From: Naegleria gruberi
Taxonomy: Eukaryota
DNA: 64,000 bases
Reading direction: 5' to 3' (one strand)
Assembly: GCA_000004985.1 (NCBI GenBank)
Contig: GG738849.1
The translations under genes and the position numbers were made by a program. The notes below the pieces were generated by a model, which was not told the origin of the DNA, did not search any database, and was given only the letters and a program-made list of their open reading frames with translations. Positions 2,890 through 53,111 of this stretch are shown piece by piece (position 1 is the first letter of the stretch; each line of letters starts with the position of its first letter).

Positions 2890-3508
2890 TTTTTAATGTT
2901 TGTTATATTTGTTAGACTGAAGAGAGAGACATGCATTTATAGTTCAGCATCAAATGGTGTTGATGATATAATACCCTGAAAGATAGGACATTAATTCGCA
3001 CCTCATTGTTGGCGACAAATTGTAAAAATTAGGTTCTGGAATAATAATGGGTTGCATAATTTTCCTTATCTCCATTGAGATGTTTGACTAGACACGAATA
3101 TCATTTTAAGAATATTTGTCATGACAGTTTTGTGAATTGTTTGGACACCAGCCATCAATATAAAACAATGGAAAACTGTAGTACTCTTGAATTGGATTAA
3201 CAAAACTTCTCTCTTAAATCTTAATAATTATTCAAAAATAAATAATTCCAATCAATAATTACTTGCAATCATCCAACCACCATAACCGTGTGCTGGTAAT
3301 TTGCAAATGGATGATGAAAAAAGAGCAAAGTTTTGTTGAATACTTAAAAACTGTTAAAATTGATAAAATTCAATCAAAAAAAATTTTGAAAAAAAGGCTT
3401 GCGGAATTTAACCCTTTTTCGCTTCTTACCATCATCATAACAACAAGAATAACAACAACTATTAATCGTCGGAAGGGAATATTATTTTACTACTAACAAA
3501 AAAAAAGA

Positions 3509-5518
3509 ATGAAAAAATTATTATTAAAAAGAGTTTCATCGGTGAGAGGAGTTTCATCATCGGGGAAGATTTTTCAACTCAATTCCAAATATATTACAGC
3601 TGCTAATTGTAATTGCAATAATAGTATAATTAAGAATCAGTTTTCAACAAGTACAAATACAAGAAAGAGTTCAAGTATTGACAATGATCCACTGTTAAAG
3701 ATTTTGGATTTTGCCAAACAAGAAAAACTCAAGGAGGATGGTTTTAAAAAGACAAAAGATGGTCGATTCTTTACAAAAACATACATTGATCCGGAAATGA
3801 TGACTGAGGATGAACGTGATGAATTTCAAAATAGAGGTATTGAATTTGAGGATGAAAATGAATTTGATAAGTGGATGAAGAATTTAGAAAAGGAAGAACG
3901 AGTTTTACAGAGAAAGGCCGATGAAGCTTTCTTACAAACTGATTTACCTTCCTCAATGAAAAGTTTTAGTTTTTCTGAACTTTTGGATGAAGCAGAACAG
4001 TACCTCATTCATGGTAAACCAATTCCACATTTTAACACATTGCCAAGTCACATTCCACTAGGTGAAAAGGAAGATTTACATCAAAGACCTGACTTTTCTC
4101 ACTTTAAATCACAACCACCAACACTTAAAGATATCAGAGAGACTGTACAATTTACAGAGTCTAATGAAGAGGAAGATAGTTCACCTTCTTCTGTAAAGCA
4201 AAGGAAAAAGGAAATGATTAGAAAGAGTGATGGTAAAATTGACCACGTACAATCAGAGAGAAACATGTACTATCAAGCTCCAAAAACACAATCTACAACA
4301 CAACCACAAGAGAAACAACAAACACCAGTGGAATATAGTACACCAGATGATTATGAAAGAATCAGAGTTCCAGAAGATGCTTACTCTGCATATTACTATT
4401 TTAGAAACGAGGTATACATAAGAGGATTGGATGTTCCACGAACAAAGGAGGAGGAGGATGAGGAAATTGCTGACTTTTTCATTGAGGCCTATTCGAACCA
4501 AAACTCTGTACAGCATTATTTAGATGATCCACTTGTTAAGCAACAGCTCTTGAAGCACTATGACAAGTTTGATAAGGTTGTTGACCAAATAACGGTAGAC
4601 CAAATGCCAACACCAGCTTCTGTTTTGACTAAGGCTCTAGATATTACAGAAGCATCTGATAATCAAAAACTGAAGAGAGAGAAAAATAATGACAAATTCT
4701 TCGATCATTTGAGTGAATTGAATAGAAAGTTACACGCCAAAGGAGAAGTAGTATACAAATTCCAATATAATCCAACAACTAAACGTATTGAGAGGACACG
4801 ATCTGTGATAGATGAAGACAAGTCATTGGAAGCTATTCAAGAAAAGGATTTGAATACTGAAGATGTTGAAAAGGAAGAACCAATAGTAGACTATGATAAG
4901 GAAGGTCTTAACCAACTTGAAATTGAAATGCTTGACCAATACTTTAAAGATATGGAAGCAGAACAGTCCAATAGATCATATAGAGACGAGGCATCAACTG
5001 AGGAAATTCTTTTGAGCAGACTTATGAAGCGAGTGAATCCAAAGAAGGATGATATTGAAGAGTTTAGTGAAACTGAATTGCTTGAATTGCAAAAGTTAGT
5101 GAAACAAAACAAGCATAAATTTGCAGAACTAGAAAGAAAGAGTGGCACTGTTAAAGAACCACTTCCACCATCTAAAAACATGTTCATGCCATCCCAAGAT
5201 GAACTTGAAAGGTCATTCAAGGAAGATTTTGGTGTTAATATCGGAGAATTCCAAGAATTGATTGAACAATATCCACAATTAGGAAATTTAATGGAAAATA
5301 TGCAAGGAGATTCTGAGTTTATTTTCAATTCCCTCTCTCAATATATTGTTGAAAATGGTGGTATTCAAAAATTGGAGCATGACTTTAACGACAAGAGTAA
5401 GGTCAACAGATCCTTTAAGGAATGGGTCAAGGTGAAGAGAGAAAGTTCTGGACTCACAGATCTCTCCACAGAAGAACTTGTCAAGGAATTAGAAAATAGG
5501 TATAAAAAGAATAAATAA
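3509..5518 (+). CDS. hypothetical acidic/coiled-coil protein (669 aa)
   Basis: Single long ORF, E/K/D-rich with heptad-like stretches. ATG at 3509 is preceded by an A-rich context. No recognised domain. Confidence 0.55.
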   Translation: MKKLLLKRVSSVRGVSSSGKIFQLNSKYITAANCNCNNSIIKNQFSTSTNTRKSSSIDNDPLLKILDFAKQEKLKEDGFKKTKDGRFFTKTYIDPEMMTEDERDEFQNRGIEFEDENEFDKWMKNLEKEERVLQRKADEAFLQTDLPSSMKSFSFSELLDEAEQYLIHGKPIPHFNTLPSHIPLGEKEDLHQRPDFSHFKSQPPTLKDIRETVQFTESNEEEDSSPSSVKQRKKEMIRKSDGKIDHVQSERNMYYQAPKTQSTTQPQEKQQTPVEYSTPDDYERIRVPEDAYSAYYYFRNEVYIRGLDVPRTKEEEDEEIADFFIEAYSNQNSVQHYLDDPLVKQQLLKHYDKFDKVVDQITVDQMPTPASVLTKALDITEASDNQKLKREKNNDKFFDHLSELNRKLHAKGEVVYKFQYNPTTKRIERTRSVIDEDKSLEAIQEKDLNTEDVEKEEPIVDYDKEGLNQLEIEMLDQYFKDMEAEQSNRSYRDEASTEEILLSRLMKRVNPKKDDIEEFSETELLELQKLVKQNKHKFAELERKSGTVKEPLPPSKNMFMPSQDELERSFKEDFGVNIGEFQELIEQYPQLGNLMENMQGDSEFIFNSLSQYIVENGGIQKLEHDFNDKSKVNRSFKEWVKVKRESSGLTDLSTEELVKELENRYKKNK

Positions 5519-37224: not shown

Positions 37225-39636
37225 TTACTTTTTCGACAAAACTTTTTCGACAACACCTGCAGCAACAGTCTCGCCATTCACTCTAGCTGTTAAACGACCA
37301 AACTTGGCAAAATCAGCATACTTTTCAATTGAGATAGTATTATCAGTAACTATGGTTACAATAGCATTCGAATACTTTGGAATACATTTTGGTTTCTTTT
37401 CAAGTATTTCTAATTGCTTGTTTAAGGTACAAGTGAGTTTGGTAATTACAGCTGGAACATCAATGTTGTGCAAATGGAGAACAACATGAGCACCCTTAAT
37501 GATTGGTATCTTCATATCAAAGGTAGCAATTCTAGCCTTGAATCTATTTGTTACCTTAATTTCATTTCCAATAGGGCATAGAATTTGACCAACCATAAGC
37601 TTTTCTATATCAATAGATCCCAAACCAATTTCAACATTGTCACCAGCATAACCATGCTTGACAGGACTCTTATGACGAAGAATGGATTTAACTGTACAAA
37701 CTTCTCTAATTGGCATAATAACCAATTCGTCTCCTTCTGAGATAGTACCTGTTTCAATCTTACCAGCAACAGTAATACCAGTTGCCAATGATTTATAAAC
37801 ATCAGAAACCGACATTCTCAAGGCCTTTTCAATATCACGAGGTTTAGGTTCGAACTTGTCAATTCTTTCAACAACTGAAAGACCATCATACCATGAAATA
37901 GATCCTGATTTTGTGATCAAATTTTCTCCTTGAAGACCACTAGCAGGAATATAAAAAACATGACTACCGTCTTGAGTTTGGAATCCTATTTGTCTCATAA
38001 AGTCGTCCAATTGAGCTACAATACTATCATAACGTTCCTTTGACCATCCGATTGAGTCCAACTTGTTTACGACAACAATTACTTGTTCAACTCCCAAACT
38101 TCTAGCTAAAATCAAGTGTTCCTTAGTTTGACCTCCATTGGCAAATCCTGTTTCAAAACCACCAGGAGTTGAATCAATAACTAGAATAGCAAAGTCAGCT
38201 TGAGCAGCACCAGTAATCATTTTTGGAATAAAATCCTTGTGACCTGGGGCATCCAAAATGGTAACATGACGATTTGGTGTTTCGAAATATCGTACACCAA
38301 CATCCATTGTGACACCACGTTGTCTTTCCTCTTCATGTTCATCCATTACCCAAGCAAAGTGGAATGATGATTTACCAATTTCAACTGACTCCTTCTTGAA
38401 TTTACGTAAAGTATTCTCAGAAACATTTCCCAATTTGTAAAGTAAATGTCCCATCAAGGTTGATTTACCAGCATCAACGTGACCAATAATAACAACATTA
38501 ATACGCTTCTTTTCCTTATCCTCAGGAGCCTTGTGTTTAATACCAGAGGATTTAATTGGTTTTGGTGATTGTGGTTCCTTCTTTTCTGATTCATCAATAT
38601 CCATATCTAAAATTGTGGTATTCTTAGACTTATTCTTTTGAGGAGTTTGTTTCTTTTCAATTGGTTTAAAGTCCTCAAGAGGTTTGTGACTAGCTTTTTG
38701 TTGAGATCTAGCAGAACTAATGAGATCATCTGGAGATGGTGTGTCAAATTTAAAAAAATCAATTATAGGGGAAGAATTGGTGTTTGAATTATTAACATGT
38801 TTTTTGTTGTGGAGTATTTCATAATAGGGAGACAATCGTTCTGGAGAGTTTGCAAAAAATGACTTTACAAAGGATTCATTGGTGAGAGAGGTTGTAAGGC
38901 AACGACCAAAAGCTGATGCAACTGCTTGACCTGTTTCTTGATTCTTTTGATTTGACGAATCAGAGAGTGAGCTTTGTGAAAGCTTTTTGATAATTTCTCT
39001 TTCATCTTCACTCAAATCAGAATCATTATTGTCTAAATCTGTCTTGTTGGATTTTCTCATATTCTTCTTCTTGTTAGAAGAAACAGATCTGAGGTATTCT
39101 TCATCAGAGGACACTTCTTCCTCCGATGAGCTGATTGACTGTTGCACTTTTGGTGTTGATTTTACATCGCTTGGTGGTTGAGTGGAATTGGAAATTTTGG
39201 AACCTCTTCCTGCCGAGAGAGGAGTTGTGTTGTTATTATTATTACTGGAAGATGATGGTGTAGTGGTAGTAGAGTTATTATCTGATGTTGTTGGTGGTAT
39301 TGTAGAGGTTTCACTCTTTACGGTTATCACAGGCCCTGAATTATTCGTTCGCATCAATCCACCCCGTCCAGCACTTACTATTGGAGTTGATGATGATGTT
39401 GTTGTTGTTGTAGTTGTGGGTATATTACCACCACTCAACAGTGATGAACCTCTTCCGGCCGAATTATTGCTACTATTGTTTGCTATTGTGGAAACAACAA
39501 CTGGAGCACTGGAAATAACATTTCCTCTACCGATGCCAGCTACACTACTAACACTTGTTGGTTGTTGTTGATTGATGGTTGGTGAAGAATTGGCGTTTCC
39601 AAGAAGGAGCCCACCTCTTCCTCTACCAGCAGACAT
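37225..39636 (-). CDS. HBS1L: HBS1-like translational GTPase with long low-complexity N-terminal extension
   Basis: G domain 'VVIIGHVDAGKSTLMGHLLYKLGNV…DEHEEERQRGVTMDVGVRYFETPNRHVTILDAPGHKDFIPKMITGAAQADFAILVID…NKLD', then beta-barrel domains II/III matching HBS1L better than eRF3 or eEF1A. Confidence 0.9.
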   Translation of the reverse strand: MSAGRGRGGLLLGNANSSPTINQQQPTSVSSVAGIGRGNVISSAPVVVSTIANNSSNNSAGRGSSLLSGGNIPTTTTTTTSSSTPIVSAGRGGLMRTNNSGPVITVKSETSTIPPTTSDNNSTTTTPSSSSNNNNNTTPLSAGRGSKISNSTQPPSDVKSTPKVQQSISSSEEEVSSDEEYLRSVSSNKKKNMRKSNKTDLDNNDSDLSEDEREIIKKLSQSSLSDSSNQKNQETGQAVASAFGRCLTTSLTNESFVKSFFANSPERLSPYYEILHNKKHVNNSNTNSSPIIDFFKFDTPSPDDLISSARSQQKASHKPLEDFKPIEKKQTPQKNKSKNTTILDMDIDESEKKEPQSPKPIKSSGIKHKAPEDKEKKRINVVIIGHVDAGKSTLMGHLLYKLGNVSENTLRKFKKESVEIGKSSFHFAWVMDEHEEERQRGVTMDVGVRYFETPNRHVTILDAPGHKDFIPKMITGAAQADFAILVIDSTPGGFETGFANGGQTKEHLILARSLGVEQVIVVVNKLDSIGWSKERYDSIVAQLDDFMRQIGFQTQDGSHVFYIPASGLQGENLITKSGSISWYDGLSVVERIDKFEPKPRDIEKALRMSVSDVYKSLATGITVAGKIETGTISEGDELVIMPIREVCTVKSILRHKSPVKHGYAGDNVEIGLGSIDIEKLMVGQILCPIGNEIKVTNRFKARIATFDMKIPIIKGAHVVLHLHNIDVPAVITKLTCTLNKQLEILEKKPKCIPKYSNAIVTIVTDNTISIEKYADFAKFGRLTARVNGETVAAGVVEKVLSKK

Positions 39637-49306: not shown

Positions 49307-49377
49307 GCATTAGTAGTGTAACGGTATCATACCAGCCTTCCAAGCTGGTGACCCGGGTTCGACTCCCGGCTAATGCA
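49307..49377 (+). tRNA. tRNA-Gly (anticodon UCC)
   Basis: GCATTAG…CTAATGC acceptor stem with discriminator A. Anticodon stem-loop CCAGC-CTTCCAA-GCTGG. T arm GACCCGGGTTCGACTCCCGGC. 71 nt, close match to eukaryotic cytosolic tRNA-Gly-TCC. Confidence 0.9.
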
Positions 49378-49588: not shown

Positions 49589-51308
49589 ATGGGTCAATCT
49601 CAAGAGAAAAGTACAAACACATTTTCAAACACTGATTCAAACAATAATATTGATGAAGTGGATGAATTGGAAGAATTAGATAAAATGATTAAATTGGACG
49701 GCTACACTCGAGACACTCCAACACCAGTAATGGATCCAACACTTTCAAAATTATTCCTCGGAGCAAGTAAAGGTAATTTTGATGAAATTCTCAAAATGGA
49801 TCACTCAGAATTGGAGCAATATGTGAATACAACAAACGATGGGGGTGTTACATTGTTATATCTGGCTTGTGAAAATGGAAGGGAAGATGTGATTAAATAC
49901 TTGTTGGCTGTGAAGGGATTGGATGTCAATTTTTTAGTGAGTTTGTTTTTGATAAGCAGTATTTAATGTTTGAATTTTGTCATTCAATTGAAGGAAGTAT
50001 GTAATTTTATATATTTGAATGGTTTCGAATAATGAAAAAGGGAGTAAGTAGTTGAATTACAAGAAAGTTTTAATTTTGTTTAAATACAGTTTGTAAGTAT
50101 ACATTTCTATGTGTTGTTCAGTAATTGAAAAATGAATAGTATGAGGTTGGTTTTTAATTTTCTATTTTTGGTAATTATTATAAAAGAAAAAAACAGTAAG
50201 TTGTAAACAATCAATTATTCTGATCCAACGAATATCTCTCTTTAGAAAAGAGATGGTGTAAGTTACATTTATCGAATCAATTCTTTTCTGAATACATTCA
50301 TATAGCTTGTAAGTATTTCATTTAAAGTTTAATTGGTTGTGAATAACTATTGTTAGGGAGTAAGTATACTTTTCAGTTATTGATATTTATTGTTATAACA
50401 ATATTGTAGAGTGTAAGTTAATAATATTAAACAAATTGTTGTAAAAATTCCAAATATAGAGTGTAAGTCAATCCTAAATTGTATAATTTTTTGATTAAAC
50501 TCTATTAATTCAGACACCTCTATTTGTTTCATGTAAACTTGGGAAAGTAAATATTGTAAAGTTATTGCTTCAAATGCCAGGAATTCAGGTAAATGAGGGC
50601 TTAACATTCAGTTCAGTATACTTGGACTCGTGTGGTCATGTTACAACCAGTCCACTCTATGCTGCATGTCAAGAAGGTCATTTGGAAATTGTAAAATTAT
50701 TATTGGACACTAAATCTATTGATCCTTATCGTGGAGAAGTTCATGATGCTGAAAATGCAATGTCATGTCTTGGAATTTCTATTTACAATGGAAAATGGGA
50801 AATTGCTTCCTTAATACTGAAAAGTATGACGTGTTGTGGTAGAAAGAAATCAGTTTTAATATTTAATAGGGATCCAATATCTGAAATTCTACTTGTATGC
50901 ATGAAAGGAAATGTTCAATTTCTGAAAGATTTATTGGAATCTAAATTGTTTGACCTTGATCACTGCGTAAGTTTCCCCATATTCCATGGAAATTATTCAA
51001 ATATGAATTAGTTTCCTTTGCATTTCTGTATTAAAAATAATGACAAGATTATGGCTAGCTTATTAATTGAGAATGGAGCTTCAACAAGTTTGAAATTTGA
51101 AAGATCAAAAGGATGTGGATATCTATTGTACAGTTTTTGTGGAAGAACATTTGATGATTTTGTAAAAATTAAGGATGGCAAGACTCCAATTGAACTGGCA
51201 AAGGAATTGAGATTTGATATTGGATCCTTGATGGGTGGAAGGTTGAAGAATAATTTGGGTAAATCATTTGACGCATTAAATGATGTCACTATTCAATTTA
51301 AAGAGTAA
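49589..51308 (+). CDS. ankyrin-repeat protein, multi-exon
   Basis: Exon 1 is 49589..49936 (…TLLYLACENGREDVIKYLLAVKGLDVNFL, GTGAGT donor). A 577-nt intron region (49937..50513) contains candidate micro-exons such as 50246..50257 'KRDG'. Then 50514..50966 (TPLFVSCKLGKVNIVKLLL…, ends DLDHC|GTAAGT) and 51012..51308 (FPLHFCIKNNDKIMASLLIENGAS…*). Phases are 0 throughout, and ANK repeat periodicity is restored if KRDG plus one Ser codon are included. Confidence 0.7.
50044..50513 (+). repeat. tandem array of eight ~50-nt intron-like units (GTAAGT…[T]AG + 3-12 nt) inside the ankyrin-gene intron
   Basis: GTAAGT occurs at 50044, 50094, 50196, 50258, 50309, 50360, 50413 and 50463, with spacings of 50, 102, 62, 51, 51, 53 and 50. 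Each unit ends …(t)ag followed by 3-12 nt (tttg, aaaagagatggt, ctt, gga, agt, agt). Confidence 0.6.
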
Positions 51309-52568: not shown

Positions 52569-53040
52569 CTCTTATTTTCTTTGTTCTTATTTTTTTCAAT
52601 TTTGTTATTTTTAGATTGAAATTCTTTCGTGTTGTTCTTTGTGTGTTTTAAATCAAAAATTTGTGCTGTTGGGAATTGTCCATTTCTCTTATTATTGTTG
52701 AAGATGAAAGGAAAAGTGTTATTATTAAACTTGAGAGCTACGGAAGGGATTCCGTGTGAGTGAGGATGAACTTGTTTGAAAATGCTCAATGAGTTTGAAA
52801 GTGGAATAATCCTTTGCACAGTCAACAGAACTTGTTTACAAATGTTCATTAGTCTGGTGTGAATTGGAGAACGCAAGATAATGGTACAGGCAGAGGTTTC
52901 CAAAACAGGAAATACAAAAAAAATTAAAAAATGAACATCATCTCACATATCTTAAATATCAAATTATGCAAAATATAGGGAAAATAATGAATGTTGAGCT
53001 AGAAAATACAAAAATTTTTACTCGAGTGCCGGGAATTGAA

Positions 53041-53111
53041 CCCGGGTCGCCAGAGTGACAGTCTGGAATGCTACCACTATACCACACCCGATTTTACATT
53101 ACATACACATT
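53041..53111 (-). tRNA. tRNA-Asp (anticodon GUC)
   Basis: Reverse complement reads TCGGGTG TGGTATAGTGGTAGCATT CCAGA CTGTCAC TCTGG CGACCCGGGTTCAATTCCCGGCACTCGAG. Anticodon loop CTGTCAC gives GTC. Close to eukaryotic tRNA-Asp-GTC. Confidence 0.9.

Follow-up and report, generated by a model that had tools for sequence, protein, structure and literature searches.

How should one read a gene whose coding sequence is interrupted, within a protein repeat, by what looks like a whole row of introns? This question is raised by an ankyrin-repeat gene of the heterolobosean amoeba Naegleria gruberi (assembly GCA_000004985.1, contig GG738849.1), located in a stretch of 64,000 nucleotides that was analyzed as a whole and is hereafter called the window. 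The gene begins with an ATG at 49589, terminates with a TAA that ends at 51308, and consists of three intact in-frame exons together with an interval of 577 nt (49937–50513), which falls within the hairpin loop that joins ankyrin repeats 1 and 2. In our reading, to which we assign a probability of roughly two in three, this interval would be a chain of 8 to 11 short spliceosomal introns with in-frame micro-exons between them and not one plain intron, and at least some isoforms probably contain the codon-sized exons. Both flanking exons are in phase 0, as had been noted in an earlier reading made from the letters alone (the sequence-only reading). Exon 1 (49589–49936, plus strand) comprises 348 nt or 116 codons, encodes an N-terminal region starting with MGQS... 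and ankyrin repeat 1, gives Pfam ankyrin matches and ends ...GLDVNFL. The second long exon (50514–50966, plus strand) comprises 453 nt or 151 codons, begins TPLFVSCKLG... and carries ankyrin repeats 2 and 3.

The chain is marked by its splice signals. GTAAGT occurs eight times in the interval, with starts at 50044, 50093, 50196, 50258, 50309, 50360, 50413, and 50463, so that 420 bp hold 8 of the 20 copies present on the plus strand of the 64 kb (Poisson P = 4.6e-12). The sequence-only reading had described this regular array with seven of the starts correct and the second placed at 50094; it had also taken the first spacer for a 4-nt "tttg," which is actually TTT (50090–50092), 3 nt long and in frame as well. 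Its statement that the units end in AG, followed by a short gap to the next GTAAGT, holds in a stricter form, as all eight are closed by YAG (six TAG and two CAG), with unit lengths of 46, 47, 50, 48, 48, 50, 47, and 51 nt, and the gap from YAG to the next donor is exactly 3 nt (TTT, CTT, GGA, AGT, AGT) or 12 nt (AAAAGAGATGGT). Lettered in their order on the plus strand, these mini-introns and the pieces between them are unit C (50044–50089, 46 nt, GTAAGT...CAG), the spacer TTT for Phe (50090–50092), and unit D (50093–50139, 47 nt, GTAAGT...TAG); then unit F (50196–50245, 50 nt, GTAAGT...TAG), the 12-nt micro-exon AAAAGAGATGGT for KRDG (50246–50257), unit G (50258–50305, 48 nt, GTAAGT...TAG), the 3-nt micro-exon CTT for Leu (50306–50308), unit H (50309–50356, 48 nt, GTAAGT...TAG), GGA for Gly (50357–50359, 3 nt), unit I (50360–50409, 50 nt, GTAAGT...TAG), AGT for Ser (50410–50412, 3 nt), unit J (50413–50459, 47 nt, GTAAGT...TAG), a second AGT for Ser (50460–50462, 3 nt), and finally unit K (50463–50513, 51 nt, GTAAGT...CAG). 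When the arrangement is written as two units and a third donor, GTAAGT-N35-48-YAG-NNN-GTAAGT-N35-48-YAG-NNN-GTAAGT, this chain pattern has three matches at the locus versus none in 100 shuffles. A YAG ending 3 nt upstream is found at only 1 of the 28 remaining GTAAGT sites in the window; the probability of YAG at a fixed position is 0.019, and that of five such junctions in succession is about 3e-9.

The 56 nt that follow the TAG of unit D (50139) do not form a ninth strong unit. Together with the first 107 nt of the interval (49937–50043), this stretch (50140–50195) admits a weaker parse into GTGAGT..AAG of 57 nt, GTATGT..AAG of 44 nt, and GTTGGT..AAG of 41 nt. The first of these, unit A (49937–49993), is a candidate mini-intron of lower confidence with a weak acceptor and an in-frame stop if retained; it is followed by the candidate micro-exon GAA for Glu (49994–49996, 3 nt), the candidate unit B (49997–50040), whose acceptor is also weak, and the candidate micro-exon GGA for Gly (50041–50043, 3 nt). 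Behind unit D comes the candidate micro-exon TATGAG for YE (50140–50145, 6 nt), valid only if unit E is spliced; unit E itself (50146–50186) is a candidate degenerate mini-intron and the sole parse that removes a TAA stop if the unit D acceptor is used, and it precedes the candidate micro-exon AAAAAAACA for KKT (50187–50195, 9 nt). Parsed in full, the 577 nt thus give 11 units and 10 spacers of 3, 3, 3, 6, 9, 12, 3, 3, 3, and 3 nt, the latter adding up to 48 nt or 16 codons, EGFYEKKTKRDGLGSS, with no stop. There would then be at most 10 micro-exons, seven of them codon-sized, all within one loop; at the sequence level TTT, CTT, GGA, AGT, and AGT adjoin perfect GTAAGT...YAG units, while GAA and the other GGA adjoin the weaker ones. 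All donors and acceptors are in phase 0 and every combination of a donor with a downstream acceptor is in frame, in keeping with the suggestion that any subset of micro-exons keeps the frame.

What then fills the units? A single large intron carrying tandemly duplicated intron copies had been proposed as one possibility, and an alignment of the units to each other as a way to examine such an origin. Local alignments between unit interiors turn out no better than those of shuffles (mean 13.2 vs. 13.5±0.5, P = 0.68; maximum 19 vs. 21±2.7, P = 0.84), Tandem Repeats Finder detects no ~50-nt period in the chain, and BLAST returns nothing but splice-site words, whether the chain is compared with itself or with the remaining window sequence (best E = 0.11 in the latter). 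GTAAGT, YAG, and length are all that the units have in common. The class of tandem repeats or minisatellites was rejected because successive units show no similarity in any of these three comparisons, and an origin by target-site duplication because adjoining spacers show no enrichment of identical triplets. As RNA, the interval folds unremarkably (z = -2.3). On the other hand, the units look like short spliceosomal introns in their GT...AG ends, size class, lower G+C content (GC), and disruption of the frame on retention. A strict scan for introns that bridge open reading frames (ORFs) yields short introns of 41, 42, 45, and 64 nt in the window, a class that includes the chain units at 46–51 nt, and longer ones of 113–359 nt. 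GC is 23.4% in the interval versus 33.2% in the exons, and whichever single unit is retained, a premature stop follows within 5–45 codons, even in the four units with lengths divisible by 3, such as unit G with its internal in-frame stop. Because 48 donor and 24 acceptor positions are perfect while the interiors are unrelated, the pattern speaks for every unit being a functional intron, as only selection for the use of splice sites would account for signals kept in such surroundings.

The same observations bear on the alternative that 49937–50513 is one plain intron of 577 nt, whose interior is a decayed tandem duplication of an intron end and whose internal sites are unused decoys. Splicing at its outer GTGAGT and CAG does bring two long open frames together in phase 0, and introns of several hundred nucleotides are plausible in this window. 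Yet it leaves unexplained why, with no repeat signal, 8/8 GTAAGT and 8/8 YAG are perfect at a spacing of 46–51 nt (P~5e-12 and ~3e-9), for neutral decay cannot wipe out the interiors and at the same time spare 72 signal positions. Eight perfect U1 sites inside would moreover compete with the weaker GTGAGT donor, and the KRDG residues would be lost and the ankyrin hairpin shortened, at a cost in the profile score given below. We regard a plain intron as quite improbable, and in particular the proposal of duplicated intron copies finds no backing in the sequence.

The chain of micro-exons can also be judged by the protein it would encode. KRDG followed by one residue and TPLF fits the ankyrin hairpin motif D-x-x-G-x-TPLH, in which the KRDG micro-exon itself supplies D-x-x-G. 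Pfam Ank_2 scores of six splice variants are 65.9 bits with no micro-exon (the lowest bar one), 69.0 bits with KRDG, 73.5 bits with KRDG+S, 66.5 bits with KRDG+LGSS, 66.6 bits with LGSS only, and 64.5 bits with all 16 codons. KRDG plus one Ser, which the sequence-only reading had singled out for its ankyrin periodicity, is indeed at the top, and since its inclusion lifts the profile fit, KRDG is very probably coding. These scores also favor a partial chain, in which KRDG and perhaps one codon would form a real micro-exon while the remaining 3-nt spacers are normally skipped. Donors would then pair with distant acceptors, for example 49937 with 50245 and 50258 with 50459 or 50513, the internal sites would be alternative or nested, and the main product would read ...DVNFL-KRDG(S)-TPLF.... 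In its favor, three repeats are recognized at the best score, the profile of a related ankyrin gene on a contig called L126 (described below) likewise prefers about one residue, and the genome splices longer introns, with all such routes in frame. However, if skipping were routine there would be no need for selection to keep all internal sites perfect, and in organisms with short introns splicing normally goes to the nearest acceptor past the branch point. The following inter-repeat loop of the same protein, which is free of introns and lies in the second long exon, has 18 residues after the conserved Asn (EGLTFSSVYLDSCGHVTT), with four between Gly and SPLY, and this is just what full inclusion would give: the resulting loop FLEGFYEKKTKRDGLGSS has 18 residues too, Gly stands at position 14 in each, and four residues then precede [T/S]PL[F/Y] in each. 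Fungal analogs also include one-codon exons. For these reasons we consider a partial chain unlikely and prefer the chain whose codon-sized exons are used.

Does the same layout occur elsewhere? Public contigs were scanned with the chain pattern, and about half of the loci found were microsatellite-like, while most others were ordinary repeats with one recurring spacer, some in prokaryote contigs; a few loci have many different 3-nt spacers as the window does. Among the contigs L002–L121, a large share of the pattern matches in one group of metagenomes (many Ga0209628, Ga0209629, Ga012335x, and Ga0268261 contigs) are false positives, namely tetranucleotide-type microsatellites with GTAAGT every 4 nt. 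One case with varied spacers is L126 (minus strand, 122–750), a eukaryotic contig of 750 nt mis-binned into a "Neptuniibacter" bacterial metagenome-assembled genome, which encodes an ankyrin protein with 37% identity to that of the window, collinear with it (E = 2e-17). Its structure is MSGY...NNK/intron/TPLF...NKG/intron/F/intron/R/intron/I/intron/SPLF...NNG/intron/S/intron/D/intron..., where a 32-nt intron is followed by chains of near-identical 46-nt introns whose spacers all differ (ttt, aga, att and tct, gat). These chains occupy the same position in the ankyrin repeat as the chain of the window. In L090 (minus strand, 220–560; JACKZZ010005374.1, 25% GC), five near-identical 53-nt GTAAGT...AATAG units with the spacers gaa, ttg, tca, tat, and cgt are preceded by an exon that probably encodes a membrane or secreted protein, and TGA is the next triplet in frame.

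A more extensive form is found in G-domain genes of Agaricomycetes, represented by L096, L044, and L053 from one soil-metagenome series and by L184, which is Phlegmacium glaucopus GCA_015039465.1, scaffold MU129998.1. The arrays lie at L096:2839–6360, L044:7194–8313, L053 (minus) 247–1982, and L184:8075–9731 (MU129998.1 ~199,291–200,947), and are built from one 53-nt intron family, GTAAGTGCAAGACCATCTTGATCTGCCTTGACTCYAGCTTACTCTTTTGACAG, with a variable triplet between units. There are ~62 units in L096, ~14 in L044, and ~30 in L184, and L053 contains the array only, with 29 junctions detected. The order of the genes is a G domain ending ...YFP[QN]IV, a GTATGT intron, the array, a few unique mini-introns with single codons, and an exon DSISKI... 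with a conserved C-terminal domain. Unit positions have an entropy of ~0.5 bit whereas spacer positions have 1.5–1.7 bits, and none of the 131 spacers is a stop codon, though GAG, AAG, and CAG occur 18 times and TAT seven times. On the minus strand of L096, for example at 3448–4010, the reverse complement of the 53-nt unit is intron-like also (GTAAGC...AAAAG, 55 nt, then 1 nt), so this fungal unit carries splice-like signals on both strands. Two further soil-metagenome loci, L034:56–700 and L108:5–520, have pyrimidine-rich 55–70-nt GT...AG units with varied triplets between them, and these units form a family distinct from the 53-nt family. The L108 chain is followed by an exon (KVLTKMWSFIDNVLSL...) that is possibly related to the exon DSISKIMSFI... 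in the G-domain genes.

In the Agaricomycete genes splicing can be followed further. Annotated or called homologs (P0241, P0242, and P0244; ~304 aa; L184:6001–7977) end in ...IV-VCI, ...LV-VCV, and ...IV-VCNWSD, and because the terminal "VC" corresponds to the translated GTATGT donor, these public gene models are truncated by read-through at the first unrecognized mini-intron. No database protein was found to span the array peptide of the virtual L096 protein. Other homologs are found on contigs that barely exceed the length of a single ORF, running from the G domain through a linker rich in W/E/L/K/Y/H to the conserved C-terminal domain. Since contigs of this type, L185 and L186, are without the six G-domain introns of the genomic copies, they are evidently RNA-derived. 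In L185:1215–1560 the linker is present as contiguous codons with one 61-nt mini-intron retained (aga/GTAAGT...GCAG/agt), and in L186:960–1117 the codons tat att gaa ggt cag cat, whose genomic equivalents are each set apart by an intron, are contiguous, flanked by the first intron, which is retained, and by a unit of the family left unspliced. Codon usage points the same way: Leu is written CTT in 11/11 cases in the L185 linker and 20/22 in the genomic spacers, versus 8/35 in the rest of the ORF, and C-ending codons make up 1, 2, and 18%, respectively; Arg is AGA in 12/12 cases in the linker versus 4/23 in the rest, the genomic spacers not being comparable (1 AGA, 1 CGT). L185 and L186 thus look like partly spliced transcripts of one-codon-exon arrays. 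That the L096 array is non-coding, which had been considered, is overturned by such RNA-derived contigs with joined codons. Evidence that one-codon exons are really spliced in the fungal G-domain genes is strong but indirect, genome and RNA contigs coming from different genes. We found no description of one-codon-exon arrays in Agaricomycete G-domain genes.

Several points weigh against a chain of working micro-exons in Naegleria. No transcript, cDNA-derived protein, or ortholog of the ankyrin gene was present in the collections searched, and no junction was observed, so that splicing at the locus is inferred here. Introns of 113–359 nt in the window make an intron of 577 nt mechanistically possible. 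The generic ankyrin profile mildly favors a short loop (KRDG+one residue, 73.5 bits vs. 66.5 and 64.5), and the L126 profile does without the spacers, scoring 59.5 bits with and 61.0 bits without them, which does not support the idea that they are needed for repeat length in L126. The 3-nt spacing may reflect the way the modules originated and not selection on the frame, and units A, B, and E, with AAG acceptors and a GTTGGT donor, deserve less weight as their parse rested on free choices. The sequence-only reading had set micro-exon chain and single intron side by side without ranking them; of the two we favor the chain, for which perfect signals, unrelated interiors, stops on retention, the fit of KRDG, the fungal analogs, and a precedent in truffles all speak.

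It might further be asked whether the locus is functional at all, or whether it represents an ankyrin pseudogene in decay or an error of assembly, in which case its pattern would have no bearing on expression. A search with the spliced ankyrin protein in a collection of 5.8 billion clusters gave no match above 36% identity, and exact look-ups of the exon-1 ORF, an adjoining 394-aa ORF, and an 803-aa ORF in public protein collections gave no record, which speaks for this view. Against it, an ATG, a TAA, and three intact in-frame exons give up to 381 residues plus stop with an Ank_2 score of 85 bits; adjoining genes are normal; mis-assembly is unlikely because the region is not repetitive; and DNA of the same organism was recovered independently, an 802-residue protein of the window being 100% identical to that of a metagenome contig in the European Nucleotide Archive (ENA). 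A non-functional locus is therefore highly improbable.

If the chain is spliced as predicted, its units would be recognized across the intron (intron definition) as members of the short-intron class of this genome and removed one by one, the removal of a first neighbor extending the exon context for the next. A 3-nt exon would then be sterically unproblematic, because the earlier removal of its neighbor lengthens that context. The ligated micro-exons would supply loop residues, and since every donor and acceptor is in phase 0, skipping could give in-frame isoforms that differ in loop length, as in the truffle genes. As for the origin, we infer local amplification of modules that each combine a mini-intron with 3n nt, because the units of young analogs are still near-identical. 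Interiors would then have diverged while selection retained every splice site, given that any unspliced unit wrecks the reading frame. The near-identical units of L126, L090, and the Agaricomycete arrays would represent a young stage of this process and the locus in the window an old one. In the young arrays (L126, L090, L096, L044, and L184) intron bodies are near-identical, yet the 3-nt spacers show no relationship to one another or to the flanking sequence; this pattern is explained neither by simple tandem duplication nor by point mutation nor by insertion with target-site duplication. Gene conversion limited to intron bodies, selection on codons, and untemplated addition of triplets are possibilities.

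Further along the gene, an ordinary intron of 45 nt (50967–51011, GTAAGT...TAG) at the repeat position x/FPLH, which is that of the last chain unit (S/TPLF), leads to the last exon (51012–51308) of 98 codons plus TAA, both on the plus strand. The protein has 366–382 residues and ankyrin domains only according to Pfam (Ank_2 85 bits, Ank_3 77, and Ank 75 on the complete protein); neither a NACHT nor another N-terminal domain was found by Pfam, and the non-ankyrin N-terminal part comprises ~60–85 residues. The MGQS... start (49589–49600) is one we take to be compatible with N-myristoylation. The window has a GC of 33.6%, that of N. gruberi being about 33%, with long ORFs crowded on both strands, among them those for eukaryotic housekeeping proteins such as an HBS1-like GTPase, Elongator Iki1, AATF/Bfr2, and Nop53. 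The HBS1-like ORF (37225–39636, minus strand) encodes the 802-residue protein mentioned above and shows 61–65% identity to proteins of N. lovaniensis, N. fowleri, and a relative, with Willaertia magna next, which places the source of the window in Naegleria. On the 7.6-kb environmental metagenome contig L001 (ENA ERZ929261, PRJEB11402), this ORF and its neighbors have 100% protein identity, which indicates that the same Naegleria is present in that sample. Scans with Rfam and for tRNA yielded only two genes in the window, tRNA-Gly(TCC) at 49307–49377 on the plus strand, ~210 nt 5' of the ATG of the ankyrin gene, and tRNA-Asp(GTC) at 53021–53091 on the minus strand, ~1.7 kb past its stop codon; neither has an evident link to the chain.

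How does the chain compare with known systems? Micro-exons of animals and plants (3–30 nt; PMC8042270, PMC8831610, PMC8378409) are likewise very short, usually frame-preserving, and in some cases 3 nt long, but they are isolated between long introns, need dedicated factors (SRRM4, PRP-40), and form no chains with ~48-nt introns. Recursive splicing at ratchet points, which the sequence-only reading had considered, shares the stepwise removal of an interval, but in the strict sense it fits poorly because 3–12 nt stay between units; recursive sites juxtapose AG/GT and leave nothing, and such zero-length exons were rejected for every junction here. Introners and tandem genomic duplication (PMC9860276, PMC12130899, PMC4457414, PMC4974935) are a possible source of locally multiplied introns, and the young arrays of L126, L090, and L096 are near-identical; the units of the window, however, have no sequence in common, neither among themselves nor with any other part of the 64 kb. 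They were not classed as introners or introner-like elements, having no copy elsewhere in the window and no flanking duplications save the identical AGT triplets around unit J. In the introner literature searched, neither tandem arrays nor Naegleria were mentioned. The Agaricomycete mini-introns are similar in being ~50 nt long, GTAAGT...YAG, exactly 3 nt apart, and in phase 0, and the last mini-introns of their arrays are unique, diverged, and similar to the units of the window; gene predictors miss them. They differ in having 14 to ~62 units, mostly of one 53-nt family, in a low-complexity W/E/L/K linker and not in an ankyrin loop, and their splicing is backed by RNA-derived contigs.

Taken together, modules of a codon and a ~50-nt intron may tentatively be seen as a general and largely overlooked way to build and vary loops and linkers, a minisatellite-like but frame-safe expansion that would have arisen independently in Discoba (the gene of the window), Pezizomycetes (truffle genes), Agaricomycetes (up to ~62 one-codon exons), and other eukaryotes (L126, L090), although this is a possibility that we would put somewhat below even odds; gene predictors would silently truncate or mis-model all of them. 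Standard gene models do miss such exons, and the affected Agaricomycete proteins are truncated in databases, where NCBI models end in "...IV-VC." If the Naegleria chain is spliced as predicted, codon-sized exons would extend from one truffle gene family to a distant protist and to an ankyrin protein that is not an NLR, which would suggest that the same solution evolved convergently at the recognition loop of ankyrin proteins and would offer splicing biology a natural test case for 3-nt exons flanked by ~48-nt introns.

The nearest precedent is that of the NACHT-ANK ("nank") genes of Tuber melanosporum, for which "dozens of 3 bp mini-exons" and alternative splicing are reported (Iotti et al., 2012, Fungal Biol 116:261, PMID 22289772, as cited by Dyrka et al., 2014, and four others; PMC4986451, PMC3689799, PMC9815663, PMC10197012, PMC13449251). 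In the literature on tandem introns, 3-nt exons, and introners we found nothing comparable besides. The architecture had been called "highly unusual," which is fair, although with Tuber it has a precedent; a chain of codon-sized micro-exons is a rare layout so far reported only in these truffle immune-receptor-like genes. The two systems share an ankyrin-repeat-coding gene with multiple consecutive in-frame 3-nt exons, and for Tuber it has been proposed that alternative use of these exons diversifies the recognition surface of the ankyrin repeats. Unlike Tuber, a pezizomycete fungus with "dozens" or "tens" of such exons and with alternative splicing reported, the amoeba has ~10 candidate micro-exons in one loop, predicted from sequence. 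We file the Naegleria locus as one that would work like the Tuber nank system but stands outside that family, because it has no NACHT domain and ~10 micro-exons, not dozens.

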